Source of the DNA: Candidatus Latescibacterota bacterium
GTDB taxonomy: Bacteria; Latescibacterota; UBA2968; UBA8231
Direction of reading: 5' to 3'
Assembly (NCBI GenBank): GCA_964291625.2
Contig: OZ220090.1
Coordinates: 512,001-576,000, forward strand
DNA length: 64,000 bases
In this document: positions 26,835 through 53,616 of the stretch, in pieces
How the letters are laid out: each line of letters opens with the position of its first letter
Numbering within the stretch: the stretch's first letter is position 1
Program-made: the position numbers and the translations under genes
Notes under the pieces: generated by a model
What the model saw: the letters and a program-made list of their open reading frames with translations, nothing else
Database searches by the model: none
What the model was told of the DNA's origin: nothing

Positions 26835-27051
26835 GGCATCTCCGTTGGCAAGGGGTGCGGTGCCGGAATCTATTTGAGGCGGTTGCCGCGGCAACCTCGG
26901 CGTCGGCGATCGGCGCCCCCCGCGCCCCCCGGGAACTCGGCCGGCTTCCGAAGGTTGGGCGCCTCGCCTATTTTCCGTGGCCGGGCATCCCGCCCGCAAT
27001 GTCACTGGCCCGCAGGATTCGAGACGACAGGGAAGACGGAGACGGCAGCCC

Positions 27052-30856: not shown

Positions 30857-30935
30857 CCTCGGCCTCCTGTGCGGGGTGAGCTGAGGCAGGCAATATAGCG
30901 CTCCATGGCAGTCCGGCACGGTCCGTCTGGACGCG

Positions 30936-30965
30936 TTGACCGACGGGGAGGACCTGGCTTAGGCT
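30936..30965 (+). promoter_or_regulatory. Putative promoter of the epimerase-LarA-SDR operon
   Basis: TTGACC-18 nt-TAGGCT. Confidence 0.4.
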
Positions 30966-30994
30966 ATGCCGCCCCGAAAGGAGAGGCAGGACCT

Positions 30995-31759
30995 ATGTGC
31001 GCATCCGTCATCGGAGCTCAGCTCTACACCGTGAGGGACTTCCTCAAGACCCCGGCCGAGATCCGCGACAGCTTCCGGCGAGTGGCCGACATCGGCTACG
31101 AGGCCGTGCAGTGCTCGGGTCTCGGGCCGATCGATGCGGCGGAGCTGAGAGCCGTCGCCGACGAAGCGGGCCTCGAGATCGCGGCGACCCACACCGACTT
31201 CGACCGCATCCGCCGCGAGCCTGGGCAGGTGATCGAGGAGCACCGGGCCTGGGGGTGCCGGCACGTGGCCATCGGCGGCATGCCGGGGGAGTATCGGAGC
31301 GCGGAGGGATTCAGCCGCTTTGCCCGGGAGGCCTCGGTAGCGGTGCGGCCGCTGATCGACGCCGGACTCACCTTCAGCTACCACAACCACAGCTTCGAAC
31401 TCGAGCGTTTCGGCGACCGCACGGGCCTGCAGATCCTCGTCGAAGAGAGCGACCCGGATACGTTCTCCTTCGAGGTCGACACCTACTGGATCCAGCACGG
31501 GGGCGGCAATCCGGTCACCTGGCTCGAGCGCCTGAAGGACCGAATGCACATCGTACACCTGAAGGACCTGGCCATGAAGGGCACGGAGCAGCGCTTCGCC
31601 GAGGTGGGGGAGGGCAACCTGGAATGGCCCGCCATCCTCGCCGCCTGCCAGTCCGCCGACGTCGAGTGGTACCTGATCGAGCAGGACCGCTGCGACGGCG
31701 ACCCCTTCGACAGTCTCGCCACCAGCCTCGGCAACCTGCGGGCCATGGGGCTGCACTAG
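30995..31759 (+). CDS. Sugar phosphate isomerase/epimerase (TIM barrel)
   Basis: GAQLYTVRD, SYHNHSFE, EVDTYWIQHGG, VHLKD, EVGEG, IEQD. Confidence 0.88.
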   Translation: MCASVIGAQLYTVRDFLKTPAEIRDSFRRVADIGYEAVQCSGLGPIDAAELRAVADEAGLEIAATHTDFDRIRREPGQVIEEHRAWGCRHVAIGGMPGEYRSAEGFSRFAREASVAVRPLIDAGLTFSYHNHSFELERFGDRTGLQILVEESDPDTFSFEVDTYWIQHGGGNPVTWLERLKDRMHIVHLKDLAMKGTEQRFAEVGEGNLEWPAILAACQSADVEWYLIEQDRCDGDPFDSLATSLGNLRAMGLH

Positions 31760-31762
31760 CCG

Positions 31763-32962
31763 ATGAGCACCCCCGACAGGTGCACCGAGCTGCAGATCCC
31801 CTGGGCGGCTTGGTACGGCAAGGAGCCGCTGAGTCTCCGCCTTCCCGAGAGCTGGGAGGTCACGGTCCGGCGGATGCGCGGGGGGCCGGACATCGGCGAC
31901 GCCGGGATCCGCCGGGCCCTGGCCGGGCCGATCGGGGCGCTCCCTCTGCGGGAGCACGCCAGGGGCCGGTCCAGCGCCGCGATTCTGGTGGACGATCTGT
32001 CCCGGCCGACGCCAGCCTTCCGCGTGGTCCCCTACATCCTCGAAGAGCTGCACGCGGCGGGCATCGACGACGACGGCATCACCATCATCTGCGCCCTGGC
32101 CGCTCACCGGCCCATGACCCGGGACGACTTCCTCAAGAAGCTCGGCGCCGAGATCGTCGAGCGCTATCGCGTCGTCAACCACAACGCCTACGAGAACCTC
32201 GAGTTCCTCGGGAACACGAGCCTCGGAGTGCCGGTCTTCGTCAACCGCGACCTGATGGCCTGCCAGGTGCGCATCGCGGCGGGCATGATCACGCCTCGCG
32301 GCGGGATGTTCGGCGGCGGCGCCAAGCTGCTGATTCCCGGGGCCTGCGGCCAGCAGACGATTCTGCTCAACCACCGCTACGTCCAGGGAGAGGCCTTCCG
32401 TCCCCATCTCGACGAGGTGGCGGGGATGGCCGGCGTCGATTACATCGTCAACCCGCTGCTGAACGAGGGTCTGGAGATCATGGGCCTCGTGGCCGGCGAC
32501 CTGACCGCCGCCTTCGAGCAAGGCTGCCGATTGGGGGCCGAGCTCTACGCTACTCCCATGCCGGCGGCCGGCACGGTGGACGTGGGCATCTTCAGCGCCT
32601 TCCCGAAGGACACCGAGCTGTGCCAGGCGGGGCTGGCCCTCGTGCCCCTCGGCAGCTGCCCCCACGACCCGATCGCCGAGGGCGGCACCGTCGTCATCGC
32701 CAGCGCCTGCCCGGAGGGGCTCGGCTGGCACTCGGTCCTCGGCCCGGGGACCGCCCTGCGCGCCCCTCCGCAGCCGCCGGCCCACCGCACGCTGCTGTTC
32801 TCGACGGGAGTGAACCCGTACGACTGCCAGGCCCTGTACGGCGAGCACGTCCGCCTGTTCCGGGAATGGGAGGACCTCATCGGCCAGTTGCAGGCCATCC
32901 ACGGCGAAAGCCCCCGGGTGTCGGTCTTCCCCGCCGGGGCCCTGCAGATGGCCGCCACCTGA
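31763..32962 (+). CDS. Lactate racemase (LarA) domain protein, divergent
   Basis: ALAGPIG, ILVDDLSRPTP, ALAAHRPMT, GNTSLGVPVFVN, GGGAKLLIPG, NH. Confidence 0.8.
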   Translation: MSTPDRCTELQIPWAAWYGKEPLSLRLPESWEVTVRRMRGGPDIGDAGIRRALAGPIGALPLREHARGRSSAAILVDDLSRPTPAFRVVPYILEELHAAGIDDDGITIICALAAHRPMTRDDFLKKLGAEIVERYRVVNHNAYENLEFLGNTSLGVPVFVNRDLMACQVRIAAGMITPRGGMFGGGAKLLIPGACGQQTILLNHRYVQGEAFRPHLDEVAGMAGVDYIVNPLLNEGLEIMGLVAGDLTAAFEQGCRLGAELYATPMPAAGTVDVGIFSAFPKDTELCQAGLALVPLGSCPHDPIAEGGTVVIASACPEGLGWHSVLGPGTALRAPPQPPAHRTLLFSTGVNPYDCQALYGEHVRLFREWEDLIGQLQAIHGESPRVSVFPAGALQMAAT

Positions 32963-32986
32963 GCACATGACAATGAGGCGGGAAGC

Positions 32987-33763
32987 GTGGCCCCACTGAA
33001 GTCCTTCGATCTCGATGGCCGGGTCGTGGCCGTCACCGGCGCCGGCCGCGGGATCGGCCGCACCATCGCTCTCGACGCGGTCCGCTCGGGCGCACGCGTG
33101 GCCATCGGCAGCCGGACGGTCAGCGAACTGGAGAGTCTCCAGGAGAGCATCGAGGCCATGGGGGGGGAGTGCTTCGCCCACTTCCTCGACGTGACCGACG
33201 TCGCCTCCATCGAGGCCTTCTTCGAGGGGGCGGACGCCCACTACGAGGGACTCCACGTCCTGGTGAACAACGCCGGCTACAACAAGCTCGGGAAGATCCT
33301 CGACTACGACGAGGATCTCTACGATCAGATCGTCGCTGCCAACCTCAAGAGCGTGTTCTTCTGCAGCCAGGCGGCGGCGAAGCGCATGATCGCCCGGGGG
33401 GTCCGCGGCAGCATCGTGAACATCTCCTCCCAGGCGGGGGTGGTGGGAGCGCCGGAGCGGGGACCCTATTCGGCGGCCAAGGGAGGGGTGAACAACCTGA
33501 CGCGCACGGCGGCCGCCGAATGGGCGGAGCACGGGATCCGGGTCAATGCCGTGGCCCCCACGGTGACCCGGTCGCCCCTGGCCCAGAGAGCCATGGAGGA
33601 CAGCCAGGCCTTCGCCGACGCGGTGAAGACCAAGAACCTCCTTCGCGGCGACCTGGCCGAGCCGGAGGAGATCTCCGCACCGGTGATCTTCCTGGCCTCC
33701 GATGCCGCCAGCATGGTCACCGGCCACGTTCTGGTGGTCGACGGGGGGTGGACCATCGTCTGA
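32987..33763 (+). CDS. SDR family oxidoreductase
   Basis: TGAGRGIG, NNAG, YSAAK, IRVNAVAP, VDGG. Confidence 0.93.
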   Translation: MAPLKSFDLDGRVVAVTGAGRGIGRTIALDAVRSGARVAIGSRTVSELESLQESIEAMGGECFAHFLDVTDVASIEAFFEGADAHYEGLHVLVNNAGYNKLGKILDYDEDLYDQIVAANLKSVFFCSQAAAKRMIARGVRGSIVNISSQAGVVGAPERGPYSAAKGGVNNLTRTAAAEWAEHGIRVNAVAPTVTRSPLAQRAMEDSQAFADAVKTKNLLRGDLAEPEEISAPVIFLASDAASMVTGHVLVVDGGWTIV

Positions 33764-33806: not shown

Positions 33807-34946
33807 TCAGGGCCGCTCCGAGGCGCCTGGAGCGGTCTCCCGCAGTCTCTCCCCCTGCCAGCCTCGGCGCGCCTCCAGCAGCCCGTCCAGCTCCCCGACG
33901 GCGGAGGCCGTGGCGGACTGCGGATCCCTTGCCAGATGGGCGAGCAGCTCCACGAGGGAGGCGGCATCTTCCACGGCGACGGCTTCGGCCCTCAGCTTCT
34001 TCCCGCCGCGGTTGTGGTAGTTCTCCAGGGGCAGGGCCACCGCACCGGCCCTCAGGCCCGCCCGGCAAAGGGCCGTCGCTTCGCACGTTCCTCCATCCAT
34101 CAGCCGGCGCTGATACCGGAAGGCGGGCCGCTGCCTGCCAAGATCCTCGGCCGCCCCAGCCAGGGCGGCGGTGACCGCAGCGTCGAAGAGCCAGCGGCGG
34201 TCACCGACCCGGATCACGGGGCCGTCGCCGAGGGGGGCACCCGCCAAGCTGGAGGAGCATTCGATATTCACGTACAGGGGATTCCGGTCGAGGTGCCCGC
34301 CGTCGAGGGCGGCGAGCATCCCCCCGAAGCCGGTCTCCTCGGCCCGGGTCAGCAGAACGCCGATGCCTGGGGCCGGGTCGGCGCGCAGGGCCTCGAGGAC
34401 CGACAGGGCCACGGCCACGCCGGCCAGGTCGTCGCAGGCGCGGCCGGAGAGCCTTCCGCCGGACAGCTCGAAGCCGGGCAGATCCCAAGTTGCGAAGATT
34501 CCTCCCGCCTTGGCATCTGCAACCGGATCGTCCAGGCGCACTCGAAAGGCGGGCCGGCCGCCGGGGTCGCCCGGAGCACCCTCCTCCAAGTAGGCCAGCA
34601 CCCTCCCACGGGCGATGGGCTCGGTGGACTGGTGGTCGTGCACCAGCACGCCGGCCCCCCTGGTCAGCTCGGTGGGAATGCCGCCCAGGGAGTGGAAGAA
34701 CCAATCGCCGCCGTCGCCAGCGGCCAGTGCCAGCCCGGGGTGGTCGAGGTGAGCGGTGAGGACGATTCCCGGTGCTGCCGCGCCCAGACGCAGGTGGAGG
34801 TTTCCGAAGGGGTCGGACAGGCAGTGCAGATCGGGCCGCTCCGCCAAATACCGCTCCACCTCCGCCAGGACGAGGTGCTCGTGGAAGGGTGCGGTGGGAA
34901 TGGGGACGAATCGCCGGGCCACGTCCAGATAGAGATCGGCAAGCAT
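33807..34946 (-). CDS. M20/M28/M42-type dinuclear metallopeptidase
   Basis: TAHLDHPG, RACDDLAG, RAEETG, NIE, NYHN; no signal peptide. Confidence 0.8.
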   Translation of the reverse strand: MLADLYLDVARRFVPIPTAPFHEHLVLAEVERYLAERPDLHCLSDPFGNLHLRLGAAAPGIVLTAHLDHPGLALAAGDGGDWFFHSLGGIPTELTRGAGVLVHDHQSTEPIARGRVLAYLEEGAPGDPGGRPAFRVRLDDPVADAKAGGIFATWDLPGFELSGGRLSGRACDDLAGVAVALSVLEALRADPAPGIGVLLTRAEETGFGGMLAALDGGHLDRNPLYVNIECSSSLAGAPLGDGPVIRVGDRRWLFDAAVTAALAGAAEDLGRQRPAFRYQRRLMDGGTCEATALCRAGLRAGAVALPLENYHNRGGKKLRAEAVAVEDAASLVELLAHLARDPQSATASAVGELDGLLEARRGWQGERLRETAPGASERP

Positions 34947-35076: not shown

Positions 35077-37233
35077 GTGAGACGGGACATACCACAGGAG
35101 TACAGCGACCACCTGGCCACGCGCCGGGAGCACGTGCTGGGCGGCGGCGGCGAGCGACTCTCCTTCCGCGCCTTCTGGGTCGGCGGCTTCCTCTCCTTCT
35201 TCCTCGCCGTGGGCGCGCCCTACGGCAACATGATCATCCGCGGCTCCTACATGGCCCTCGACTTCAGCACCCCGGGGGCGATTTTCCTCTTTCTGTTCCT
35301 CATCGGCCTCCTCAACTGCGCCTTCAAGCTCGCCCGCCACCCTGCGGTTGCCATCGGCCTCGCCGGCTCGGCCACGGCGGGATGGCTGATCGTCTACAGG
35401 ACGGCCATCACCGATCTCGACTTCTACTCCCCGGGTCTGATGCTGGCCACCTTCCTGGTCCTGACCACCTGGCTCAACCTGCCGGTGGTGCTCCGCGGCG
35501 GGAGCCTGGCCCTGAACCGATCCGAGCTGGTCCTGGTCTACGCCATGCTGCTCATCGTCTCCGCCCTGTGCACCATGGGGCTGGGCGAGCAGATCCTGCC
35601 CGTCATCACGGCGATCTTCTACTTCGCCTCGCCGGAGAACCAGTGGGCGGAGAAGCTCTTTCCCCACCTGCCCCAGCGGGCGATGGTGAACGACGGCACG
35701 GACAGCCGACTGTTCTACGAGGGACTCTCCGGTCCGGAGGAGGCGATTCCCTACGAGTCCTGGGTGGAGCCCCTCCTGTGGTGGGGGATCTTCCTGCTGG
35801 CCCTGTACGTGATGATGGTCTCGGTGGCCGTGATCCTCCGCCGCCAGTGGATGGAGCGGGAACGCCTGGCCTACCCGATCGCGCAGGTGGGCCTCTCGAT
35901 GATCCGCTCCGAGCACGCCGACCGGGCGGTGAACGGCTTCTTCAGGCGACCCCTCATGTGGTTGGGGGCGTCCCTGCCCCTGATCGTCGGCAGCCTGAAG
36001 GCCCTGAACCGCTACTACCCGGAAGTTCCGGTGGCGCCGACGCATTGGTTCCTGCCCTTCGTGGGATACGAGAGCCTGCAGATCACGATCAGCTTCGCCA
36101 TGCTGGGGTTCTCCTACTTCATCAACGCCAACATCGCCGCCGGCATCTGGTTCTTCCACCTGTTCTCGAAGGTGGAGAAGCAGGCCCTGCTTCTCACCGG
36201 CCTCCAGTCCACGCAGAAGATCAGCTTCGGAGTCTCCGACTATCCCTTCCTCGGCTACCAGGGAGTGGGGGCATTGCTGGCCATGGTGGTCGTCGGTCTG
36301 TGGGTCGGCCGCGAGCACTACCGCCGGGTGCTGCTCAAGGCCGCCGGCCTCGCTCCCGAGGTGCAGGACGAGGACGAGATCCTGTCCTACCGGGGCGCCG
36401 TGGCGGGGGCCGTGGGCGGCACCGCCCTCATGGCTGGATGGCTGTGGATCATGGGGACCCCCCTGTGGGTGGCCCTGCTCTTCATCGTCCTGGCCATCCT
36501 GATCTTCATCGGCATTACCCGGATCGTGACCGAAGCGGGACTGGCCGCCATCCGCTCGCCGATGATCGCCAGCGAGCTGGTGGTGCAGGGGATGGGCTCC
36601 TCCCTGGTCGGCCCCGCGGGAGTGATGAACCTCTCCCTGACCTACATCTGGGCCGCCGATATCCGCGTCTTCGTCATGGCCACGGCCTCCAACGCGTTGA
36701 AGATGATCGAGGAGATGGAGCCCCGGAACCGGCGCATCGTGTTCTGGGCCATGGTGGCGGCCATGTTCATCGGCGCCGCCGGATCCTTGTGGATGATCTT
36801 CCACATGGCCTACCGGCACGGGGGCATCAACCTGGCGAGCTGGTTCTTCCAGGGCCTGCCCCGGACCGCGTACGACGCAGCCCTGCGCAACATGGAGCCC
36901 GAGGGAACCTACTGGCCGGGTCTCGGCTTCTTCGGGGGCGGCGCCGCCGCCATGGTTGCCATGATGTGGCTTCGCCAGCGGCTGCCGTGGTGGCCCGTCC
37001 ATCCCATCGGCTTTCCCATCGGCGCCAACAGCATGATGAACCACGTCTGGTTCAACGTCTTCGTGGCCTGGCTGGTGAAGCGGACCGTGCTGCGCTACGG
37101 CGGCGCCAACGCCTACCACGGCAGCCAGCACTTCTTCCTGGGGCTGATCGCCGGCCAGGTCCTGTGCAACGGCCTGTGGCTGGTGATCGACTACTTCACC
37201 GGCAAGGTGGGCAACTCCATCTTCTGGGTGTGA
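35077..37233 (+). CDS. Polytopic membrane protein, DUF6785/DUF6784-like (putative peptide transporter), copy 1
   Basis: Many TM helices; ELVLVYAM, PENQW, FYEG, RRQWMERERLAYPI, WWPVHPIG; GTG start after GGGAGG; family name recalled, needs HMM check. Confidence 0.75.
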   Translation: MRRDIPQEYSDHLATRREHVLGGGGERLSFRAFWVGGFLSFFLAVGAPYGNMIIRGSYMALDFSTPGAIFLFLFLIGLLNCAFKLARHPAVAIGLAGSATAGWLIVYRTAITDLDFYSPGLMLATFLVLTTWLNLPVVLRGGSLALNRSELVLVYAMLLIVSALCTMGLGEQILPVITAIFYFASPENQWAEKLFPHLPQRAMVNDGTDSRLFYEGLSGPEEAIPYESWVEPLLWWGIFLLALYVMMVSVAVILRRQWMERERLAYPIAQVGLSMIRSEHADRAVNGFFRRPLMWLGASLPLIVGSLKALNRYYPEVPVAPTHWFLPFVGYESLQITISFAMLGFSYFINANIAAGIWFFHLFSKVEKQALLLTGLQSTQKISFGVSDYPFLGYQGVGALLAMVVVGLWVGREHYRRVLLKAAGLAPEVQDEDEILSYRGAVAGAVGGTALMAGWLWIMGTPLWVALLFIVLAILIFIGITRIVTEAGLAAIRSPMIASELVVQGMGSSLVGPAGVMNLSLTYIWAADIRVFVMATASNALKMIEEMEPRNRRIVFWAMVAAMFIGAAGSLWMIFHMAYRHGGINLASWFFQGLPRTAYDAALRNMEPEGTYWPGLGFFGGGAAAMVAMMWLRQRLPWWPVHPIGFPIGANSMMNHVWFNVFVAWLVKRTVLRYGGANAYHGSQHFFLGLIAGQVLCNGLWLVIDYFTGKVGNSIFWV

Positions 37234-37297
37234 GGGGCGGGATGCAGAAGAGCGTGAGGCGCCTTCGAAGCGCACCTGGGGGTTCCGGGACTCGGCC

Positions 37298-39478
37298 ATG
37301 TCCGGCCGGCAGCAGGCGGACCCGGTGAACAGGACGATCCCGCAGGAGTACGGCGAGCGCCTGGCCGAGCGCCGGGAGCGCGTCCTGGGCGGCGGCGAGC
37401 GCCTCTCCTTCCGCGCCTTCTGGGTCGGCGGCTTCCTCTCCCTCTTCCTGGCCGTGGGCGCCCCCTACGGCAACATGATCCTCCGCGGGTCCTTCATGGC
37501 CATGGACTTCAGCACCCCGGGGGCGATCTTCCTCTTCCTCTTCCTCATCGGCCTTCTCAACTGCGCCTTCAAGCTCGCCCGGCAGCCCGCCGTGGCCCTC
37601 GGCCTGACGGCTTCGTCCACGGCGGCGTGGCTGGTGGTCTACAGGCCGGCCCTCGGCGACCTCGACTTCTACTCCCCGGGCCTGATGATGGCCACCTTCC
37701 TGGTCCTGACCACCTGGCTCAACCTGCCCGTGGTGCTCCGCGGCGGCAGCCTGGCCCTGAATCGCTCCGAGCTGGTCCTGGTCTACGCCATGCTGCTCAT
37801 CGTCTCGGCCTTGTGCACCATGGGCCTGGCCGAGCAGATCCTCCCCATCATCACGGCGATGTTCTATTTCGCCACCCCGGAGAACCAGTGGGCGGAGAAG
37901 CTCTTTCCCCACCTGCCGGAGGGGGTGATGGTGAACGACGGCACGGACAGCCGCCTGTTCTACGAGGGCCTCTCCGGTCCCGAGGAGGCGATTCCATACG
38001 CCTCCTGGGTGGAGCCCCTCCTGTGGTGGGGGGTCTTCCTGCTGGCCCTGTACGTGATGATGGTCTCGGTGGCGGTGATCCTGCGCCGCCAGTGGATGGA
38101 GCGCGAGCGCCTGGCCTACCCGATCGCCCAGGTGGGCCTCGCCATGATCCGCTCCGAGCACGCCGACCGGGCCGTGAACGACTTCTTCAAGCGACCCGTC
38201 ATGTGGCTGGGGGCGGCCCTGCCCCTGGCCCAGGGCAGCTTGCGGGGGCTGAAGTTCTACGAAGTGCCGGTGCCCACGACGCGCCTGGAGTGGAATCTCC
38301 CCTTCATCGGCCTCCAGAGCCTGCATCTGAGCGTCAACTTCGCCGTCCTCGGGTTCTCGTATTTCATCAACGCCAACATCGCCGCCGGCATCTGGTTCTT
38401 CCATCTCCTCTCGACTGCGGAAAAGCAGTTGCTCATCCTCACCGGGCTGCAGTCGTCCCGGAAGATCGGTCTCGGCGTCTCCGACTACCCCTTTCTCGGG
38501 TACCAGGGGGTGGGGGCGCTGCTGGCCATGGTGGTGGTCGGCCTGTGGGTGGGCCGCGAGCACTACTGGCGAGTCCTGCGCAGGGCCGTCGGACTGGCCC
38601 CCGAAGTCCGCGACGACGACGAGATCCTGTCCTACCGGGGCGCCGTGGCCGGGGCCCTGGGAGGCACCGCCGTCATGACGGCCTGGCTGTGGTACATGGG
38701 GACCCCCATGTGGGTAACCCTGCTCTTTCTGCTCGTGGCGGTGCTGATCTTCATCGGAATCACGAGGATCGTGACCGAGGCCGGCCTGGCGGTCGTCCGC
38801 GGGCCCATGATCGCCGGCGACCTCGTGGTGCAGGGAGTCGGTTCCTCCCTGATCGGCCCCGCGGGGGTGGTGAACCTCTCCCTGGCCCACGTCTGGGCCG
38901 CCGACATCCGTGTCTTCGTCATGGGCACCGCCTCCAACGCCCTGAAGATGATCGAGGAGATGGAGCCCCGGAACCGCCGCACCGTGTTCTGGGCCATGAT
39001 CGCCGCCCTCTTCATCGGCGCCGCCGGCTCCCTGTGGATGATCTTCCACATGGCCTATCTCCACGGGGCCCTCAACCTGAACGGCTGGTTCTTCCGGGGG
39101 CTGCCCCGCTACGCCTACGATGCGGCCCTGCGCAACATGGAACCCCATGGGGTTCACTGGCCCGGGCTCGGCTTCTTCGGCGCCGGGGCCGCCGCCATGG
39201 TCACCCTCATGTGGCTGCGCCAGCGGCTGCCCTGGTGGCCCGTCCACCCCATCGGTCTACCCATCGGCGCCACGCCCATGATGAACCGCCTCTGGTTCAA
39301 CGTCTTCGTGGCCTGGGTCGTCAAGCGAGGCGTTCTGCGGTACGGCGGCGCCACCGGCTACCAGAAGAGTCAGCCCTTCTTTCTCGGGTTGATCAGCGGC
39401 CAGGTCCTGTGCAGTGGAGGCTGGCTGGTGATCGACTACTTCACAGGCGCAGTGGGGAACTACCTTTACGAGATATGA
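37298..39478 (+). CDS. Polytopic membrane protein, DUF6785/DUF6784-like, copy 2
   Basis: Colinear paralog of 35077-37233 with long identical stretches. Confidence 0.75.
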   Translation: MSGRQQADPVNRTIPQEYGERLAERRERVLGGGERLSFRAFWVGGFLSLFLAVGAPYGNMILRGSFMAMDFSTPGAIFLFLFLIGLLNCAFKLARQPAVALGLTASSTAAWLVVYRPALGDLDFYSPGLMMATFLVLTTWLNLPVVLRGGSLALNRSELVLVYAMLLIVSALCTMGLAEQILPIITAMFYFATPENQWAEKLFPHLPEGVMVNDGTDSRLFYEGLSGPEEAIPYASWVEPLLWWGVFLLALYVMMVSVAVILRRQWMERERLAYPIAQVGLAMIRSEHADRAVNDFFKRPVMWLGAALPLAQGSLRGLKFYEVPVPTTRLEWNLPFIGLQSLHLSVNFAVLGFSYFINANIAAGIWFFHLLSTAEKQLLILTGLQSSRKIGLGVSDYPFLGYQGVGALLAMVVVGLWVGREHYWRVLRRAVGLAPEVRDDDEILSYRGAVAGALGGTAVMTAWLWYMGTPMWVTLLFLLVAVLIFIGITRIVTEAGLAVVRGPMIAGDLVVQGVGSSLIGPAGVVNLSLAHVWAADIRVFVMGTASNALKMIEEMEPRNRRTVFWAMIAALFIGAAGSLWMIFHMAYLHGALNLNGWFFRGLPRYAYDAALRNMEPHGVHWPGLGFFGAGAAAMVTLMWLRQRLPWWPVHPIGLPIGATPMMNRLWFNVFVAWVVKRGVLRYGGATGYQKSQPFFLGLISGQVLCSGGWLVIDYFTGAVGNYLYEI

Positions 39479-42400
39479 GCGGACCACACTCCCGACCCGC
39501 CCTGGCGCTCATGGCCTGGCTGCAGCTCTCTGCCGCGGCCCTTGCGGACGGCCCCGACCTGTGGGCCATCCCCGACGAGGGGCAGCGTCTGCGGGCGAGC
39601 GTGGAGTACCTCTCCGGCCTCGGCTCCCGCATCAGCGGACACGAGGGCGGGAGGCGCGCCGGGGACTGGATCGAGGGCCAGCTGTCGGCCCTTGACCTGG
39701 GGTCCGTGCATCGGGAGACCTTCCCCATCACCGTGCCGGTCGAGCTGGGCGGGCGCAGCCGCCTGGAGGTCGTCGACACCGGTGAGGAGTTCGACATGCA
39801 CGGGCTGTGGCCCAACGGCCCGCGCACTACCACGACCCCGCCCGAAGGCCTGGAGGGCCAGCTCACCTGGGCCGGCAACGGCGAGTACACCGACTTCGAG
39901 GGCCGGCAGCTGCACGGCCGCGTGGTGCTGATGGAGTTCAACACCTGGGATCGCTGGGTGCGGCTGGCGGCGCTCGGCGCCAGGGCGGTGATCTTCATCG
40001 AGCCCGCGGAGACTTCCTATCCCCAGACGGAGGACAAGAGCCTCATCGTTCCCGTCGATGTGCCGCGGTTCTGGATCGGCTCGGAGGCGGGACGGCAGCT
40101 CCAGCGGAGACTGGAGGGAGGAGCCGAGATCGGCGTCCGTCTGCACAGCCGGATGGACTGGGTCGAGCGGCCTTGCGCGAACCTCTGGGTGGAAGTCACC
40201 GGCGCCGACACGGCCCGGGCGCCGCAGCGGATCGTCGTGCAGAGCTACTACGACGGGACCTCGATCGTGCCCTCCCTGGCGCCCTCGGCCGAGGCTTCCA
40301 GCGGCGCCGCGGCGATGCTGGAGCTGGCCCGCCACCTGCGGGACCATCCGCCCGCACGGACGGTGGTCCTCCTGCTCACGGGCTCCCACTTCCAGGACCG
40401 GGCTGGAATCGTCGACTTCATCGAGCGCCACACCCGCAAGTCGGACTACTTCGCTCCCTTCACGGACTCCATGGCCGTCGATCTCTACGTCGGCCTCGAC
40501 CTGTCCACCAAGACCGACCAAGTGGCCATCTGGAACAACACCACCAGTTTCGACCTCAAGCGGTTCTTCGTCCCCTTCGGGCGGCGCTACACCCGGTACG
40601 CCGAGGAGACGGCAGCCGAGCTCGGAAGGGCGGGAGAGCCGCTGCTGCTCAACGGCATCAGCCCCATCCGGGGAATGGACTGGTCGACCTTCGTCCCCGA
40701 CGGCGCCTTCGTCGACACCCGCCTGGCCATGCTCGCCGGCCAGGTGGCCCTCTCCTTCGTCACCGCCCACGACGCCCGCTTTCCGCTGGCCACCCCACTC
40801 GACACTCCCGGCCGGATGAATCAGGACAACCTCCTGAGCCAGTCGCGGTTCCTCAAGGGCGTGCTGTCCCGGTCCTTCGACGACCCGGACCTGTTCACGG
40901 GTCTGGAGGACTTCGGCCCCGTGCTCAAGGACCAGCTGCGCACCCACACCGTTCGCGTACGGGCCTTCCCGCGCCGCAGCCAGATCCCCGACCGGACCGT
41001 GGCCGACGCCCTGGTGATGGTGGGGGCGGGAACTCACAAGGGCCTGAACATGAGCCGGTCCTACCTCACCGACGAGCTGGGCGACGTCACCGTGTCGGGG
41101 CTGGTGGTGGGAGCCACCTCGGTGGTGGCCTATGTCCTCGATCCCGAGACGGGGAGGGTCGTCTACGCTCCGGACCTGAGCGAGCGCGGCCAGAAGCACC
41201 ACGGCAAGCCCCTGGCCAGCGGCCGCATGAACTGGAGCATCCGCTGGAACAAGGACAGCAAGCCCCTCGTCGTCTTCCCGAGCAGGCAGAGGACCCTCTT
41301 CGGGCTGACCCATCCCAACCAGCTCGTGGGGCTGGCCTCCCTGAAGATGATCGGCAGCGGCGGCATCCCGCCCCGGCAGTTCGGGTACGCCTTCGGACGC
41401 ACCCTCAGCAGCAACCTCTGCGTCGTCTTCGCGCCCCAGGAGTCGGCCGTCGAGGACCCCCGCCTGAAGATGCTCTTCGGCGACATGCTGCTGCTCAACA
41501 GCCCGGGGGGGGTATCGGAAAAGGAGGCCAAGGGCACGGGGTACGACCTGGCGGTGGACGACCTGTTGCCCTCGGAGCTGTTCGCCCTGCGCGACACCTG
41601 GAGGCTCAACGACGCTCGCCTGGCCACGATGCGCTCCCACGCCATCGAGAACCAGCGCATCACCCGCCTGCACGAGGCCGGCCGCCGGTTCCTCGCCAGG
41701 GCCGAGGACTCGTTGCGGGAGGGCCGCTGGCGGGACTACGTCGCCGAGGTCCGGTCCGGGCTGGGGGTGACCCTGAAGGCCTATCCCCAGGTGAAGGCCA
41801 CCCTCAACGACGTGATCAAGGGGATCGTGTTCTTCCTGGCCCTGGTAGTGCCCACCGCCTTCTTCGGGGAGCGCCTGCTCTTCGCCGCCTCCGACATCCG
41901 CTGGCAGATCGGGGGGTTCTTCGTCCTCCTGCTGGTCGTCTGGATCCTGATCTCCCAGGTCCATCCGGCCTTCGACATCGCCCACCCCCTGATCATCCTG
42001 CTGGCCTTCTTCATCATGGCCATGGCCGTCTTCGTCCTGGGAATGGTATCGAGCCGGTTCAACCGGTTCATCAAGGAGTATCAGGCCGAGAGGGCCAAGG
42101 TCCACGAGACCGACATCAGCCGCGCCAGCGCCGCCTACGCCGCCTTCATGCTCGGCATCTCCAACATGCGCCGACGCCGGCTGCGCACCGGGTTGACCCT
42201 GCTCACCCTGACCTTGCTCACCTTCACGGTCCTCTCCTTCACCTCCGTCCGGCCCGAAGTGTGGTACTTCGTCTTTCCCCTCCGCCACGAGGGTTCCTAC
42301 ACGGGAGCCCTGATCCGCGACCGCGGCTGGAACTCCCTGCCGGAGACCACCCTGGAGTACGCCCGTTCCCACTTCGAGGAGCACGGCCTCGTGGTCCCGC

Positions 42401-43920
42401 GGAACTGGTACATCACCTACGACGGCGAGGAGAAGAAGTACACCGAGATCCGGCACGACGGCCTGATGGTGCGCGCCACGGGCCTCCTCGGCCTCGCCTC
42501 CCAGGAGCAGCGGGTGACCGAACTGGCCTCGACCCTCTCGGCGGGGAGCTGGTTCGCGGATGGCGACGAGTCGACCTGCCTGATCTCGGAGGGAATGGCG
42601 GAAGGTCTGGGAATCGGCTCCGGCGAAGTGGGGGAGGCCGAGGTGCAGGTCTTCGGCAAGAGGCTGACCGTGGCCGGGATCTTCTCCGCCGATGCCTTCA
42701 ACGAGGTGCGCGATCTCGACGACGAGCCCCTCAGTCCGGCGGACTTCCAGCTGTCGAGCATGCAGGCCCTGGGTCCCGCGGAAGGGCCGCAGATGACCGT
42801 GCAGGAGGAGGAGGAGACGTCAGAGGTGCGGCCCTTCGTCCACCTCGACCCCGCCAACGTGCTCATCCTGCCCTACGAGGCGCTGAAGGTCGCCTTCGGT
42901 GACCTGCGCTCCGTGGCCATCCGCTTCGACGAGGGCGCTCCGGCTCAGGAACTGATCGAGGAGTTCCTGCAGCGCATTTCCGGAACCGTCTTCGCCGGCC
43001 TTCCGGACGAGGAAGGCCGCATCGATGTCGTCTCATACACCTCTCTGGGGGGCACCTCCGTCGAGGGGCTGGCGGCCCTGATCGTGCCGATGCTGATCGC
43101 CGCCCTCATCGTCCTCAACACGATGATGGGCGCCGTGTACGAACGCTTCCGGGAGATCGGCATCTACTCCTCCGTGGGGCTGGCGCCGATGCACATCGCC
43201 CTGCTCTTCATCGCCGAGGCCTGCGTGTACGCGGTCATGGGGGTGACCCTGGGCTACCTCATCGGCCAGATCCTCGGCCGCGGGCTGGTGCACTTCGACC
43301 TGCTGGGGGGCATGAACCTCAACTACTCCTCCTTCGCCGCCATCCTCGCCGCCTGCATGGTCATGGGGGTCGTGCTGCTGTCCACCATCTACCCGGCCCG
43401 CGTCGCCTCCCGCTCGGCCGTTCCCGACACGGTCCGGCGCTGGCGGCCGCCGCCGCCCGACGGCGACCGCTGGGAATTCGACTTCCCCTTCATGGTGGGC
43501 CGGAGCGAGGTGGTGGGGATCTGCGGGTTCCTGGCCAACTTCTTCAGCGCCTACAGCGAGGAGTCGATCGGCGACTTCTACGCCGACAAGGTGCGGATCA
43601 CCACCGGGGAGACGCCGGCGGGACCTGAGTACGCCGTGCAGCTGCTGTTGTGGCTGGCCCCCTTCGACATGGGCGTGAGCCAGTTCGTGCAGATCGAGCT
43701 GGCGCCCACGTCCACGCCCGGGGTCTGCGACGTGCAGATCTACATCCACCGGGTCAGCGGCCAGGACACCTACTGGCAGCGGGTCAACCGCCGCTTCGTC
43801 AACCACCTGCGCAAGGAGTTCCTGATCTGGCACACCCTCGACGCGGAGTCCAAGGCCTTCCACGATCAGAGCGCCCGAGAGCGGATGGCGGCTGAGGAGG
43901 CAGGGGAGGTCACAGCGTAG
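39475..43920 (+). CDS. ~1480 aa fusion: signal peptide + PA/M28 peptidase-like domain + TM bundle + MacB/FtsX-like permease
   Basis: ATGA overlap; SAAALA/DG; SSGAAAMLELARHL; ISNMRRRRLRTGLT; NTMMGAVYERFREIGIYSSVGL. Confidence 0.8.
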   Translation: MSGPHSRPALALMAWLQLSAAALADGPDLWAIPDEGQRLRASVEYLSGLGSRISGHEGGRRAGDWIEGQLSALDLGSVHRETFPITVPVELGGRSRLEVVDTGEEFDMHGLWPNGPRTTTTPPEGLEGQLTWAGNGEYTDFEGRQLHGRVVLMEFNTWDRWVRLAALGARAVIFIEPAETSYPQTEDKSLIVPVDVPRFWIGSEAGRQLQRRLEGGAEIGVRLHSRMDWVERPCANLWVEVTGADTARAPQRIVVQSYYDGTSIVPSLAPSAEASSGAAAMLELARHLRDHPPARTVVLLLTGSHFQDRAGIVDFIERHTRKSDYFAPFTDSMAVDLYVGLDLSTKTDQVAIWNNTTSFDLKRFFVPFGRRYTRYAEETAAELGRAGEPLLLNGISPIRGMDWSTFVPDGAFVDTRLAMLAGQVALSFVTAHDARFPLATPLDTPGRMNQDNLLSQSRFLKGVLSRSFDDPDLFTGLEDFGPVLKDQLRTHTVRVRAFPRRSQIPDRTVADALVMVGAGTHKGLNMSRSYLTDELGDVTVSGLVVGATSVVAYVLDPETGRVVYAPDLSERGQKHHGKPLASGRMNWSIRWNKDSKPLVVFPSRQRTLFGLTHPNQLVGLASLKMIGSGGIPPRQFGYAFGRTLSSNLCVVFAPQESAVEDPRLKMLFGDMLLLNSPGGVSEKEAKGTGYDLAVDDLLPSELFALRDTWRLNDARLATMRSHAIENQRITRLHEAGRRFLARAEDSLREGRWRDYVAEVRSGLGVTLKAYPQVKATLNDVIKGIVFFLALVVPTAFFGERLLFAASDIRWQIGGFFVLLLVVWILISQVHPAFDIAHPLIILLAFFIMAMAVFVLGMVSSRFNRFIKEYQAERAKVHETDISRASAAYAAFMLGISNMRRRRLRTGLTLLTLTLLTFTVLSFTSVRPEVWYFVFPLRHEGSYTGALIRDRGWNSLPETTLEYARSHFEEHGLVVPRNWYITYDGEEKKYTEIRHDGLMVRATGLLGLASQEQRVTELASTLSAGSWFADGDESTCLISEGMAEGLGIGSGEVGEAEVQVFGKRLTVAGIFSADAFNEVRDLDDEPLSPADFQLSSMQALGPAEGPQMTVQEEEETSEVRPFVHLDPANVLILPYEALKVAFGDLRSVAIRFDEGAPAQELIEEFLQRISGTVFAGLPDEEGRIDVVSYTSLGGTSVEGLAALIVPMLIAALIVLNTMMGAVYERFREIGIYSSVGLAPMHIALLFIAEACVYAVMGVTLGYLIGQILGRGLVHFDLLGGMNLNYSSFAAILAACMVMGVVLLSTIYPARVASRSAVPDTVRRWRPPPPDGDRWEFDFPFMVGRSEVVGICGFLANFFSAYSEESIGDFYADKVRITTGETPAGPEYAVQLLLWLAPFDMGVSQFVQIELAPTSTPGVCDVQIYIHRVSGQDTYWQRVNRRFVNHLRKEFLIWHTLDAESKAFHDQSARERMAAEEAGEVTA

Positions 43921-43923
43921 ACC

Positions 43924-46617
43924 ATGGCCGAAAACGGAAAGCAGAGCCTGCGCCAGCGGCTGCGGAGGTCGCAGTGGCAGGAGGTGGAGGAGTACCGCGC
44001 CCTGCTGGAGCCGGCCGAGCAGTTCGAGAGCGGCTTCACGATGCGCACCATCATCGGCGTCCTCTTCATCTCCCTGGTCATGACCCCGGGGGAGATGTAC
44101 CTGGGCCTGGTCACGGGCGGGGGCATCGGCGCTGCGGCCCAGTGGGTGACGGTGATCCTCTTCCTCGAGGTGGCCAAGCGGTCCTTCACCTCCCTGCGCC
44201 GGCAGGAGATCTACCTGCTGGTCTACGTGGCCTCGGCCCTGGTGGCCCGGGAGGAGGGGGCCTTCCTCGACCTGCTCTTCCGGCAGTACTTCGTGCGCTC
44301 CGCCGAGGCCGAGATGTTCGGCATATCCAAGCTGCTGCCGTTCTGGTACGTGCCCCATCCCGAGTCGCCGGCCCTGGCGGCGCGCACCTTCCTGCACCGC
44401 GACTGGCTGTGGCCCATCGCCCTGCTGATCATGGGCACCATCGTCGGCCGCGTCAGTTGGTTCACCTCGGGGTACCTGCTCTTCCGCCTGACCTCCGACC
44501 GCGAGCGCCTGCCCTTTCCCACGGCGCCCATGTCGGCTCTTTCAGCCATGGCCCTGGCCGAGGAGAGCGGCGGCGAGAAGGAGACCTGGAAGTGGCCCGT
44601 GTTCTCCCTGGGAGGGGTCATGGGCGCCGTCTTCGGCGTCATCTACGTGGGCATCCCTACCCTGACCGAGGTCCTGCAGGGGACGAAGGTCACCCTTATC
44701 CCGATCCCCTGGTGGGACCTGACGCCGTACCTGGGCAACCTCCTGCCGGCCGCGCCCGTGGGGATCACCCTCCACCTCGGGATCATCTTCGGTGGCCTCC
44801 TGGCCCCGTTCTGGGGGATCATCGGGTCGAGCCTGGGCGTGATTGTGCACACGGCGGTAAGCCCGTGGCTGCACGCCCATGGCATGCTTCCGGGCTGGTC
44901 CCTGGGGATGGGCCTCATCGAGACGCAGATCGTCACCGGCATCGACTTCTGGAGGGCCTTCTCCATCGGCATCACCATCGCCGTGACGGTCATCAGCTTC
45001 TACCAGCTCTTCGCCACCGCCCGTCAGCGCCGCATGGCGACCCGCGACGAGTTCCTCGGGGAGAAACGCGAGTACCCGAGGACCTGCGTCCACGACGGCT
45101 GCAACGCCCCCTCGCAGGTCCGCGGCTACTGCATCAAGCACCTGGGCCGGGGCGACTTCAACCTCTGGGTCTGCGTCGTCCTGTTCGCCATGGCCGCCCT
45201 CTACCCCATCGTGCTCGCCAAGACCCTCTTCCCGTCCCTGGTGACCACGGGTCTGCTCATCGTGTTCTTCGGCATCGCCTTCGTGTACGCGCCGATCATG
45301 TCCTTCGTCTCGGCTCGGCTCGACGGGCTCATCGGCCGCGAGGTGTCGATCCCGTACATCAACGAGGCGATCATCTTCCTCACCGGGTACCGCGGCGTCG
45401 ACATCTGGTTCGTGCCCTTCCCGACCCGCAACTACGGGGGCCACGCCGAGGGCTTCCGCGTCGTCGAACTCACGGGCATGCGCTTCACCAGCCTGTTGCA
45501 CGCCGAGCTCTTCATGCTGCCCATCGTCTTCGGCGTGAGCCTCATGTACTGGAGCTTCCTGTGGCGCCTGGGGCCCATCCCCTCGGAGAGCTATCCCTAC
45601 GCCCAGCTCATGTGGCCCCTGCAGGCCTTCAACCAGGCCCTGTTCTACTCCAGCACCATGTACAACAAGATGTGGCGGGCGGGAGAGGAGGTGGACGGGC
45701 GCCGCGTCGATGGCGGGGAGGTGGTCTGGAGCCCGTCCAACCTGCAGGACAGGGAGTGGTGGTACTGGCGGGTGCGGGTCACGGACGACGTGGACGTGCC
45801 CGACGCGGAGAGGCGGGAGTACGGCCCTTGGTCGAAGACGGGGTTCTTCTACACCAACTTCGGAGACGGAACCCCGCCGTCCGACGTGCCGGAGCGCGTC
45901 TTCGACCTGCTCGCCGACGCCGAGCGCAGGGCGGCGATGAAGAGTCAGCAGTCCCGCGCTCCCCCTGAGCCGGGCACAGGGCACACGGCGGAGCTGCTGT
46001 GGCCCGCCCCCGGCGAGGTCGTGGACACGGCGAACCCGAACTTCCACGCCCGGGTGACGGGGGTGCCCGACTCGCTCGAGCTCTACTTCGAGGTGGACAG
46101 ACTGCCCACCTTCGACGGGGAGTTCCTGCAGCGCTCCACGGACTGGCCGCTCATGTTCCAGGCCTTGTGGCGGGATCTTCGCTACACAGGCGACCGGCGG
46201 GACAACGACGGCGACGGCCAGATCGACGAGGAGCTCTACAACCTCAAGGACGACGACGGCGACGGACGGACCGACGAGGACTACCACCATCCCCTCGACG
46301 GCTGGAAGTGGCCGATCATGCTCTTCGGCGCCGGCTTCGGGCTGGTCATGTACTTCGGCCTCTCCTTCCTCGGCCTGCCCGTCTTCCTCATCTGGGGTTA
46401 CGTGCAGAGCGTTCTGGGGGTGCCCACCAGTCTGCTGCCCCAGCTCGCCGGGGCCCTGCTCGCCCGGTTCTACTTCTGGAAGCGCTACGGCCGGCAGGAG
46501 TGGCGCCGGTACGCCATGGTGCTCACCGTCGGCTTCGGCGTGGGCATGTCCCTCATCGGCATGTTCTGCGCCGCCCTCGCCATGATCAGCAAGGCGGTCT
46601 CGGCCCTGCAGTACTGA
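43924..46617 (+). CDS. OPT-like (oligopeptide transporter) membrane protein with soluble inserts
   Basis: GFTMRTIIG, RQEIYLL, DRERLPFPTAP, many TM helices; starts 3 nt after the previous stop. Confidence 0.7.
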   Translation: MAENGKQSLRQRLRRSQWQEVEEYRALLEPAEQFESGFTMRTIIGVLFISLVMTPGEMYLGLVTGGGIGAAAQWVTVILFLEVAKRSFTSLRRQEIYLLVYVASALVAREEGAFLDLLFRQYFVRSAEAEMFGISKLLPFWYVPHPESPALAARTFLHRDWLWPIALLIMGTIVGRVSWFTSGYLLFRLTSDRERLPFPTAPMSALSAMALAEESGGEKETWKWPVFSLGGVMGAVFGVIYVGIPTLTEVLQGTKVTLIPIPWWDLTPYLGNLLPAAPVGITLHLGIIFGGLLAPFWGIIGSSLGVIVHTAVSPWLHAHGMLPGWSLGMGLIETQIVTGIDFWRAFSIGITIAVTVISFYQLFATARQRRMATRDEFLGEKREYPRTCVHDGCNAPSQVRGYCIKHLGRGDFNLWVCVVLFAMAALYPIVLAKTLFPSLVTTGLLIVFFGIAFVYAPIMSFVSARLDGLIGREVSIPYINEAIIFLTGYRGVDIWFVPFPTRNYGGHAEGFRVVELTGMRFTSLLHAELFMLPIVFGVSLMYWSFLWRLGPIPSESYPYAQLMWPLQAFNQALFYSSTMYNKMWRAGEEVDGRRVDGGEVVWSPSNLQDREWWYWRVRVTDDVDVPDAERREYGPWSKTGFFYTNFGDGTPPSDVPERVFDLLADAERRAAMKSQQSRAPPEPGTGHTAELLWPAPGEVVDTANPNFHARVTGVPDSLELYFEVDRLPTFDGEFLQRSTDWPLMFQALWRDLRYTGDRRDNDGDGQIDEELYNLKDDDGDGRTDEDYHHPLDGWKWPIMLFGAGFGLVMYFGLSFLGLPVFLIWGYVQSVLGVPTSLLPQLAGALLARFYFWKRYGRQEWRRYAMVLTVGFGVGMSLIGMFCAALAMISKAVSALQY

Positions 46618-53132: not shown

Positions 53133-53133
53133 G

Positions 53134-53616
53134 TCAGGCCCCGCTCCGCACCCGGCGCCAGCCGTTGATCAGGAAGCGCAGGGCCATGCCGGCGAAGACG
53201 GCGGGGAAGACGAGCTGGGCGACCCAGGCCGGCACGCCGGGGAAGGCCTCGGCCCCGTAGGCGCGTTCATCGAGGACGAATCGCAGGGCGACAGGGGCCA
53301 GGATCCCGCAGAGGGCGGCAGCCACCAGGTCACCGCAGGCCGCCACCCGGGGCCGCCAGCGCGGGGGCACCAGACGCAGGACCGCGTCGATGCGGATGTG
53401 CCGGTCCTGTCGGGTGGCGACCAAGGCCCCCAGGAAGCTCGACCACAGAACGAGATGGCGCAGCAGCGGGTCTGCCCAGAACCAGGTGACCTGGAACAGG
53501 TTGCGCATGAGGATCTGGGCGAAAGCGAGACACAGTAGACAGCCCACGAGGGCGACGAGAGCGACCTCCTCGGGGCGCCGGTAGAGGGGGGGGCGAGTTG
53601 GTTCGGCGGTCTTCAT
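53134..53616 (-). CDS. TRAP transporter small permease (DctQ/TatQ)
   Basis: 4 TM; QILMRN, WADPLLRHLVLW, HIRID. Confidence 0.9.
   Translation of the reverse strand: MKTAEPTRPPLYRRPEEVALVALVGCLLCLAFAQILMRNLFQVTWFWADPLLRHLVLWSSFLGALVATRQDRHIRIDAVLRLVPPRWRPRVAACGDLVAAALCGILAPVALRFVLDERAYGAEAFPGVPAWVAQLVFPAVFAGMALRFLINGWRRVRSGA

Follow-up and report, generated by a model that had tools for sequence, protein, structure and literature searches.

What is made by four large membrane-protein genes that lie one behind the other on a single strand in Candidatus Latescibacterota, and what could their products do together? The genes occupy positions 35077-46617 of the window (the whole stretch analysed: 64,000 nucleotides, positions 512,001 to 576,000 of contig OZ220090.1, assembly GCA_964291625.2) and encode two DUF6785 proteins (genes 1 and 2), a protein with an FtsX domain and an M28/PA-like ectodomain (gene 3, P3) and a divergent permease (gene 4, P4); feature coordinates are collected in Table 1. 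An earlier note, written by a model from the letters of the sequence, had described four co-oriented genes encoding ~3,800 aa of membrane protein and had proposed that the products form one complex that captures a periplasmic ligand on a dead peptidase domain and translocates it through OPT-fold subunits. The observation was confirmed and the interpretation partly supported. Gene order, size and spacing were exactly reproduced (~3,822 aa in total; 64 nt between genes 1 and 2, an ATGA overlap between gene 2 and P3, and 3 nt between P3 and P4), and many membrane segments were found in each of the four proteins by hydropathy. In the reading favoured here, which is given a probability of about 0.5, the genes would specify an envelope module for ligand import, with P3 and P4 as its core, the DUF6785 proteins as later partners and an ATPase supplied in trans. 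The genome under study (G000; 5.9 Mb, 2 contigs) is that of a sponge-associated bacterium. L-numbers designate individual loci, f-numbers families of the phylum and the remaining G-numbers other genomes of the phylum; searches for homologues and loci across genomes covered the phylum Latescibacterota. Pfam identifiers are PF20581 (DUF6785), PF20580 (DUF6784), PF03169 (OPT), PF02687 (FtsX) and PF12704 (MacB_PCD).

P3 is predicted to be a permease subunit of an ATP-binding cassette (ABC) transporter of type VII, that is, of MacB/LolC type. Pfam placed FtsX at residues 1201-1313 (E 1.7e-10; score 41.4 bits, cut-off 25.5), NCBIfam returned FtsX-type matches far below threshold, and the matches among sequences of the PDB were MacB, YtrF, LolC, LolF and FtsX, with the MacB alignments starting at residue ~1121. 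MacB_PCD was annotated in many close homologues; P0003 itself has a segment of ~265 residues between transmembrane helices 1 and 2 (TM1 and TM2) and did not match this domain at E<=0.1. The P3 family comprised 245 homologues at E<=1e-5. Two motifs, NMRRRxLRT and ERxREIG, were invariant in 40 family sequences and also in a set of 37 that included members of ATPase-linked operons (invariant columns N897-M898-R900-R901-R904-T905 and E1223-R1224-I1228-G1235). They are taken here, as in the MacB and LolCDE structures, to be the elements through which the permease docks onto and couples to its ATPase. Because these cytoplasmic docking elements have been kept, P3 is most likely driven by ATP, with the ATPase acting in trans.

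Among named models, PADLOC PDLC01991 (CARF_m8--CARF_LolE_TM) matched the membrane module of P3 most strongly (E 3.7e-62, residues 738-1101 and a second stretch). This match was confined to residues 738-1319 (window 41686-43431; also recorded at E 9e-54) and took in the three extra hydrophobic helices that precede the module. The C-terminal domain of P3 stands in the place that corresponds to the cytoplasmic sensor of the PADLOC protein, to which it bears no similarity, and no relative of this domain was found in the PDB, Atlas or PADLOC. It is a possibility, judged from this alignment, that elsewhere FtsX modules of the P3 subfamily work together with cytoplasmic sensor domains.

The ectodomain of P3 was related to M28 peptidases through its family. 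P3 alone reached only E 0.013 against Pfam M28, below the cut-off; the family profile matched the aminopeptidases 2ek8 (E 6.8e-14) and YwaD, 6hc6 (E 8e-12), and more weakly an Aeromonas-type leucyl aminopeptidase (1.5e-3), the transferrin receptor (1.8e-3) and nicalin (3e-3). In alignments to 2ek8 and 6hc6 the M28 His ligand was replaced by Tyr258, the bridging Asp by Glu273 and the Glu-Glu pair by His305-Phe306; by eye, the fourth ligand was retained as Asp342 and the last His replaced by Trp403. The zinc-ligand and catalytic residues of the reference enzymes are taken to be those usual for M28. On these alignments the canonical two-zinc site and the catalytic Glu are absent from P3, which agrees with the claim that the peptidase is dead. 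Among 40 family members Y258, Y259, D260, E273 and H305 were at least 90% conserved, and D342 and W403 were invariant. Because the substituted residues Y258, E273, H305 and W403 are conserved, the pocket appears to be under selection and fits a predicted binding site rather than decay.

P4 gave no significant match to Pfam or NCBIfam, and none to OPT at E<=0.1; its assignment was obtained by way of relatives. Of the candidates scored, 591 proteins fell into the P4 family at E<=1e-5; at E<=1e-3 it comprised 898 clusters of 50% identity, and its common form has ~640 aa. Pfam OPT was matched by 22 of 61 aligned members (best E 1.3e-17) and by six of a sample of 14, five of these above the 25.8-bit cut-off and with alignments reaching positions 99-620 of 623. 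The OPT-matching members align with P0004 at E<=1e-39, and P4, itself below the OPT profile, is read as a divergent OPT-family member because of this transitive evidence. Within the motif RERLPFPT, E194, L196 and F198 were at least 90% conserved in the 61 family members and P199 was invariant.

The large hydrophilic insertion of P4 occupies a site that, as seen in these alignments, is a hot spot for domain insertion. It carried 150-410 residues in 12 of the 61 members and an 11-29-residue loop in the others; inserts at the same site in relatives of P4 included PDZ (~43 of the 120 matches listed), beta-propeller and FGE-sulfatase domains. The acidic DNDGDG/DDDGDG repeats within the P4 insert (residues 760-781; 46201-46266) are calcium-binding in appearance, and since they resemble calcium-binding repeats they suggest that the insert faces the periplasm. 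A second feature of P4, a zinc-knuckle-like CxHxxC...CxKH motif in a loop (residues 388-407; 45085-45144), gave a weak Pfam match to Zf_WRKY19 and was kept in 4 of the 61 family members, all of the closest subfamily.

Both upstream proteins matched DUF6785 over almost its whole length, P0001 at E 8.9e-113 (377.9 bits, positions 4-498 of 498) and P0002 at E 7.3e-111 (positions 16-498 of 498), followed by DUF6784 (E 2.6e-29, positions 3-95 of 101, and E 1.2e-28, positions 2-95 of 101). The two are identical at 582 of 716 positions (81%). Both fell below the Pfam OPT profile, P0001 had no match among PDB sequences, and P0001 and P0004 showed no similarity by BLASTP. Their relation was visible at the profile level only: a profile of the 27 DUF6785 paralogs of G000 aligned with the P4-family profile over 448 columns (probability 97.9%, E 3.3e-13), with the ERLxFP motifs in register. 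The earlier note had pointed to a shared ERLx[YF]P loop (RERLAYPI twice, RERLPFPT once). Because the motifs occupy homologous columns of the profile-profile alignment, the loop is inherited and not a chance likeness. At profile level DUF6785 is thus distantly homologous to the P4 family and a remote relative within the OPT superfamily, and both would be expected to have an OPT fold. The assignments to DUF6785, to a pseudo-M28/FtsX fusion and to an OPT-like permease thus all stood, on Pfam matches and family-profile matches together.

Whether these proteins belong together was addressed through their linkage. By tblastn, G000 has five genes of P3 type and five of P4 type and no more, each pair sharing one locus; the pairs are adjacent in three loci, separated by one DUF6785 gene in a fourth (L012) and ~11.6 kb apart in the fifth (L009/L010). 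Profile searches of loci and whole genomes yielded 26 P3 loci with enough flanking sequence, many of them orthologous, so that the counts are not independent. P4 lay directly 3' of P3 in 21 of the 26, after one DUF6785 gene in one (L012) and 11.6 kb downstream in one (L009/L010). Two further loci, orthologous to each other, had a DUF6785 neighbour only (2.6-3.6 kb upstream; one decaying), and no partner was found in the remaining one. The decaying copy (G010:C1:924563-933025) has in-frame stops in both the P3 paralog and the upstream DUF6785 gene, the orthologous pair in G009 being intact, so that the two genes are decaying together. Across the phylum, 155 of 168 genomes contained P3, as did 13 of 14 families. 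In the family that lacks it, P3 was found in none of 13 genomes, and neither the P4 profile nor DUF6785 was matched in any of the five searched for them (90-97% complete). The near-universal adjacency points to P3+P4 as the conserved core, and co-occurrence in other genomes, which the earlier note had set as a test, was thereby observed.

DUF6785 was, on the same comparisons, a frequent but variable and looser partner of this core. It adjoins P3 in three of the five G000 loci and in operons of family f3, and 20 of the 120 P3 homologues listed are covalent P3-DUF6785 fusions of ~2,100 aa; in all 20 the ectodomain comes first, then FtsX, then the C-terminal domain, to which DUF6785 is joined by at most 25 linker residues. 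The family is expanded, with 28 matches in G000 (27 over the cut-off; for example C2:547344, C2:549619 and C1:4222874) and 10-21 in each of five other P3-bearing genomes. A fully supported clade of five rows in the DUF6785 tree united genes 1 and 2 with the DUF6785 genes of a paralogous P3/P4 locus of G000. The tandem pair upstream of P3 was confined to the window and its orthologues L001-L004 (88-96% identical). At L005-L007, whose P3 is 55% identical, P3 and P4 were present and neither the DUF6785 pair nor the M42 peptidase was found within the available flanks, and in L006 P3 is directly preceded by the same two genes, AP_endonuc_2 and SDR, as lie upstream in the window. Because the pair and the peptidase are missing from L005-L007 while L006 keeps these upstream genes, they look like a later insertion. 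A functional link is supported for P3 and P4 by their adjacency and for P3 and DUF6785 by the fusions, but the four genes do not make up one fixed unit, the pair being absent from L005-L007.

The same insertion allows a second explanation, in which P3 and P4 alone would make up the machine and the DUF6785 pair with the M42 peptidase would be an independent, proton-driven unit for peptide uptake and degradation, inserted upstream of it by chance; there would then be no complex of four proteins. The state of L005-L007 and the upstream genes of L006 agree with this, as do the many DUF6785 copies of G000 that are unlinked to P3 (most of the 27) and the 64-nt gap and divergently oriented peptidase gene, which suggest a separable unit. 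It accounts poorly for the covalent fusions, for the DUF6785 genes beside P3 in f3 and at three G000 loci, for the clustering of genes 1 and 2 with those of another P3/P4 locus, and for the ATGA overlap between gene 2 and P3, which suggests translational coupling. This explanation is considered somewhat unlikely.

The nature of the neighbouring enzymes was of limited help. An M20 peptidase lies 3 kb from the paralogous locus L008, and peptidases were found near two of the five G000 loci; the M42 peptidase of the window may be functionally associated with the module, a weak association. A PqqD-like gene (RRE-type, peptide-binding) lies just downstream of one paralogous P4 (L011:4874-5311, - strand; C1:263877-264311), with none at the other four G000 loci. 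AP_endonuc_2 genes, often with an SDR gene, recur by the module (window 30905-33763, + strand; L006:8144-9706; L014:1361-2218, - strand); they stand upstream of P3 in the window and L006, and divergent from an ATPase of the P3-linked clade described below in f3 and f4. The copies are not close orthologues, and their recurrence may be coincidental. A conserved 352-aa open reading frame (ORF) upstream of the f3 ATPase was rejected as an antisense artefact of the AP_endonuc_2 gene.

The earlier note had also stated that no ATPase accompanies the operon, and had called for a search for one among neighbours and elsewhere in the genome. None was found in the operon or its flanks; in f3 and in G008, by contrast, an ATPase belongs to the same operon, and G000 has two unlinked members of the same clade. 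In f3, a family of the same class, four loci run ABC ATPase, small ORF, DUF6785, P3, P4 on one strand, and a fifth has the same order broken by a transposase. At L016 a transposase lies between the ATPase and P3 and the DUF6785 gene is missing, which shows how an ATPase may become unlinked from P3. DDE transposases in or beside the module elsewhere were located at L016:5895-7100 (- strand) and L006:2438-5719 (- strand). In G008 (family f8) the only P3 copy stands in the order P3, P4, a 323-aa ORF, a 229-aa mini-FtsX protein and an ABC ATPase.

Candidate motors in G000 were sought by scoring its 68 full ABC domains with a profile of MacB type. Of the ten that ranked highest, nine have an FtsX gene no more than 9 kb away. 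The exception is a stand-alone (orphan) ATPase of 250 aa (G000:C2:809663-810412) that adjoins uvrB and has an intact Walker A motif, signature, Walker B motif and H-loop. Its orthologues are 83-100% identical in most genomes of its own family and its best relatives elsewhere in the phylum 51-59%; several of the latter are encoded upstream of a P3 gene, at a distance of 3-5.5 kb. The second candidate is a MacB-type ATPase paired with a 234-aa mini-FtsX protein (L021:8586-10104, equivalent to G000:C1:~1882586-1884104). Mini-FtsX proteins of 229-234 aa, lacking a sizeable periplasmic domain and paired with an ATPase, were seen in all P3-bearing families examined (also L028:4896-6461), and in G008 the pair is directly downstream of P3-P4. 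Such a pair could supply a second FtsX half together with the motor. A small FtsX and ABC pair inside the third (paralog-3) locus of G000 was considered as a motor and dropped, as it is absent from three orthologous loci; it probably has nothing to do with the module.

P3-linked, mini-FtsX-paired and orphan ATPases formed one clade (support 100/100, 100/98 and 99 in three analyses), and the best ATPase matches of four genomes of the P3-less family fell outside it, among LolCDE-like systems. A reciprocal best match between the orphan and the P3-linked ATPases failed. A group of 12 rows of 'unpaired' ATPases was not rejected by an approximately unbiased (AU) test (p 0.32), an outcome that has no evidential value. 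From these results, P3 is still probably ATP-driven, its motor in trans being the orphan or the mini-FtsX-paired ATPase. As a separate observation, G000:C1:2197000-2226000 holds a tandem array of about a dozen proteins with two FtsX domains each (~790-1040 aa), similar to the 'duplicated orphan permease' (ADOP) type, with one partial ABC match inside it and one ATPase 9 kb off; the orphan ATPase could have these proteins, too, as clients.

An ATP-independent machine would dispense with such a motor: P3 would be a receptor or scaffold presenting ligand to proton-driven OPT-fold permeases, its C-terminal domain taking the place of the ATPase. There is no cis ATPase in the window or at four of the five G000 loci; the related ATPases of families f1, f4, f9, f13 and f14 do not adjoin P3; TM4 is followed in every P3 by a conserved cytoplasmic domain of ~150 residues whose kind is not recognised; and the nearest named relative of the membrane module is the LolE-like PADLOC model, named for its CARF sensor domain. 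OPT/YSL transporters are, in addition, proton-coupled by themselves (PMC9691689). What speaks against such a machine is that the docking motifs show no variation, whether P3 is linked to an ATPase or not, that dedicated ATPases occur in the operons of two lineages, and that the ATPase clade is present wherever P3 is found and absent where it is absent. A motorless P3 is accordingly held to be clearly unlikely.

The mechanism that would follow from an ATP-driven P3 was set out as follows. P3 would act as the type VII ABC permease subunit, with a large, receptor-like periplasmic domain remodelled from M28/PA, and P4 as its dedicated, divergent OPT-family permease; P0001 and P0002 may be additional or alternative permease partners recruited later to this copy. 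P3, P4 and DUF6785 would form a membrane complex in which ATP hydrolysis by the trans-encoded ATPase moves the periplasmic part of P3 (mechanotransmission). The pseudo-peptidase domain would capture a peptide-like or other organic ligand, which would be handed to the OPT-fold permease or permeases for import. Barley YS1, of the OPT/YSL group, is a homodimeric, proton-coupled, elevator-type importer (PMC9691689); because characterised OPT/YSL proteins are of this kind, import is the likelier direction, and genes 1 and 2 could encode a heterodimer.

The opposite direction was also considered. In an outward-acting machine resembling LolCDE, MacAB, FtsEX-EnvC or YbbAP-TesA, P3 would extract, expel or activate something in the periplasm, and a substrate (a peptide, or a lipid-linked or cell-wall precursor) would be delivered or flipped to the outside by the OPT-like proteins. 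The protein-binding domains inserted in P4 relatives (PDZ, beta-propellers) and the PqqD-like peptide-binding protein beside one paralogous locus would suit such a role, and characterised type VII ABC systems work on periplasmic or outer-leaflet substrates (PMC5985334, PMC7668044, PMC12646458) and are not known to import. Set against this are the importers among characterised OPT/YSL proteins (PMC9691689), the lack of any outer-membrane factor, adaptor or hydrolase gene conserved beside the module, and the several paralogous copies per genome with an expanded DUF6785 family, which fit nutrient scavenging better. Outward action is judged decidedly improbable.

A more specific version of the import reading would make the system a hybrid class, in which an ATP-driven MacB-type subunit with a receptor-like pseudo-peptidase gates or feeds OPT-fold, elevator-type permeases, and one or two shared ATPases acting in trans serve five modules of different specificity. 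As a whole this version is doubtful; if true, it would amount to an ABC-assisted secondary importer and a major nutrient-scavenging device of the Latescibacterota and other uncultivated lineages.

Several results tell against the import module with an ATPase in trans. No ABC ATPase gene was found in the flanks, the nearest ABC_tran matches on the contig being ~174 kb and ~271 kb away, and at four of the five P3 loci of G000 no ATPase was found nearby. The orphan ATPase has a long branch and an unstable position (one tree joins it to the P3-linked ATPases, support 88/84, and in two it is basal); the f3-linked ATPases score 306-313 bits against the mini-FtsX-paired ATPase and 266-288 against the orphan, and the orphan could be the motor not of P3 but of the many duplicated FtsX permeases in G000 that lack an ATPase of their own. 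About 22 of the 27 DUF6785 copies of G000 lie away from P3, so these proteins are clearly able to work alone, and in the DUF6785 tree the P3-associated members are scattered over several separate clades. The P4 family profile had no meaningful match among PDB sequences. The phyletic co-absence of P3, P4 and DUF6785 counts as a single evolutionary event. Finally, neighbours vary by locus (M42 and M20 peptidases, creatininase, PqqD-like protein, sugar-type enzymes), and because these enzymes differ between loci they offer no consistent clue to the substrate.

Table 1. Features of the four-gene locus and its divergent neighbour (feature; positions in the window; strand; remarks)
Gene 1 (P0001), 718 aa	35077-37233	+	Pfam DUF6785 + DUF6784; polytopic membrane protein
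RERLAYPI motif, gene 1 residues 261-268	35857-35880	+	aligns with ERLPFP of the P4 family
Gene 2 (P0002), 726 aa	37298-39478	+	Pfam DUF6785 + DUF6784; tandem paralog of gene 1
RERLAYPI motif, gene 2 residues 269-276	38102-38125	+	
Gene 3 (P0003 = P3), 1481 aa	39475-43920	+	Pfam FtsX; M28/PA-like ectodomain
P3 signal peptide, AxA-type (…AALA/DG)	N-terminus	+	read by eye
P3 periplasmic ectodomain, residues ~25-770	39547-41784	+	predicted M28 fold with PA insertion, then ~330 residues of unknown fold
Three extra hydrophobic helices, P3 residues ~773-863	41791-42063	+	hydropathy; highly conserved in family
MacB/FtsX-type module, P3 residues ~890-1320	42142-43434	+	NMRRRRLRT helix, TM1, predicted periplasmic core, TM2-TM4 with ERFREIG loop
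P3 cytoplasmic C-terminal domain, residues 1320-1481	43432-43917	+	~150-160 residues; kept in all P3 loci
Gene 4 (P0004 = P4), 897 aa	43924-46617	+	divergent OPT-family permease (predicted) with inserted hydrophilic domain
RERLPFPT motif, P4 residues 193-200	44500-44523	+	
P4 insertion, ~220 hydrophilic residues (~580-800)	45661-46323	+	with acidic DNDGDG / DDDGDG repeats
M42/M20-type peptidase, divergent from gene 1	33807-34946	-	Pfam M42 E 8e-14

The gene calls and surroundings were examined as follows. The window has a GC content of 65-72%, and all four genes are rich in GC at third codon positions, as real genes in 69% GC DNA are. The GTG start at 35077 is supported by a Shine-Dalgarno-like GGGAGG 10 nt upstream. 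A promoter/terminator scan gave no promoter-like site, and all terminator-like matches fell within genes. The 5' flank carries AP_endonuc_2 (TIM barrel), LarA-like and SDR genes on the + strand and the 3' flank a convergent LPG_synthase_TM gene; a Pfam search of the flanking genes found no CRISPR or defence genes. The stretch was present in sponge metagenome runs of 12 studies. In the metatranscriptome run X2 about half of the sampled words were present, and contigs spanned operon and flanks evenly; one (39394-40351) bridges the junction of gene 2 and P3, but these contigs may include DNA carry-over, so neither expression nor co-transcription follows. Elsewhere in the window, a TRAP transporter (DctP, DctQ, DctM) with a TAtT component at 51837-57609 (- strand) adjoins a PF10023 aminopeptidase and a TPR protein and is a separate uptake locus. 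The 2-oxoacid dehydrogenase E2 component is present as two overlapping ORFs, 26977-27639 and 27627-28289 (+ strand), one with the lipoyl and E3-binding domains and the other with the catalytic domain; a frameshift, an error of sequencing or a true division of the gene could each account for it.

On the usual view, mechanical work in the periplasm is the task of type VII ABC systems, and OPT proteins are proton symporters that suffice by themselves; an apparently obligate partnership between the two, sometimes covalent, was not found described in the literature. A full-text literature search returned no publication on DUF6785, DUF6784 or the combination of FtsX, M28 and OPT, and nothing relevant on 'OPT family' with FtsX. 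Because the module is nearly universal in the phylum and present in several copies, it is probably central to feeding or envelope building there. The present analysis adds that a single genome holds five paralogous modules, gives counts across the phylum together with the joint absence of the parts from one family, traces how the DUF6785 pair seems to have been inserted, and names two ATPases as candidates on a clade-level phyletic argument. The analysis offers testable partners (P3-P4, P3-DUF6785 and the two candidate ATPases) and a conserved remodelled site in P3.

Compared with known systems, P3 shares with type VII ABC transporters (MacB, LolCDE, FtsEX, YtrEF, YbbAP-TesA) the four-helix FtsX module, a predicted periplasmic domain between TM1 and TM2, the RRRxLRT helix, the ERxREIG loop and, in its relatives, operons with a MacB-type ATPase. 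It differs from them in adding a pseudo-M28/PA ectodomain of ~750 residues, three helices and a C-terminal domain of ~160 residues, in having no cis ATPase here and in its apparently obligate OPT-family partner, the like of which is not known from any type VII system described. The membrane module also matches PADLOC CARF_LolE_TM, a candidate defence-associated protein, whose likeness to P3 does not extend to the ectodomain or the C-terminal domain. To OPT/YSL transporters (PF03169; YS1) P4 is linked by distant family members whose matches span almost the whole OPT profile and by the ERLxFP loop that aligns with DUF6785, a likeness at the level of sequence; unlike them, it has a 220-residue insert and a genetic tie to an FtsX-type protein. 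With the transferrin receptor, nicalin and PA-domain aminopeptidases (2ek8, 6hc6) P3 shares the M28 fold, by profile, and the PA insertion. The transferrin receptor and nicalin are taken to be catalytically inactive; like inactive M28-fold proteins P3 lacks the zinc ligands, and unlike them it is fused to a transporter module and has conserved substitutes. TRAP and TTT systems offer a functional analogy without homology, a periplasmic receptor feeding a secondary-type permease; unlike in these, the predicted receptor here belongs to a permease subunit of ABC type, and ATP probably plays a part.

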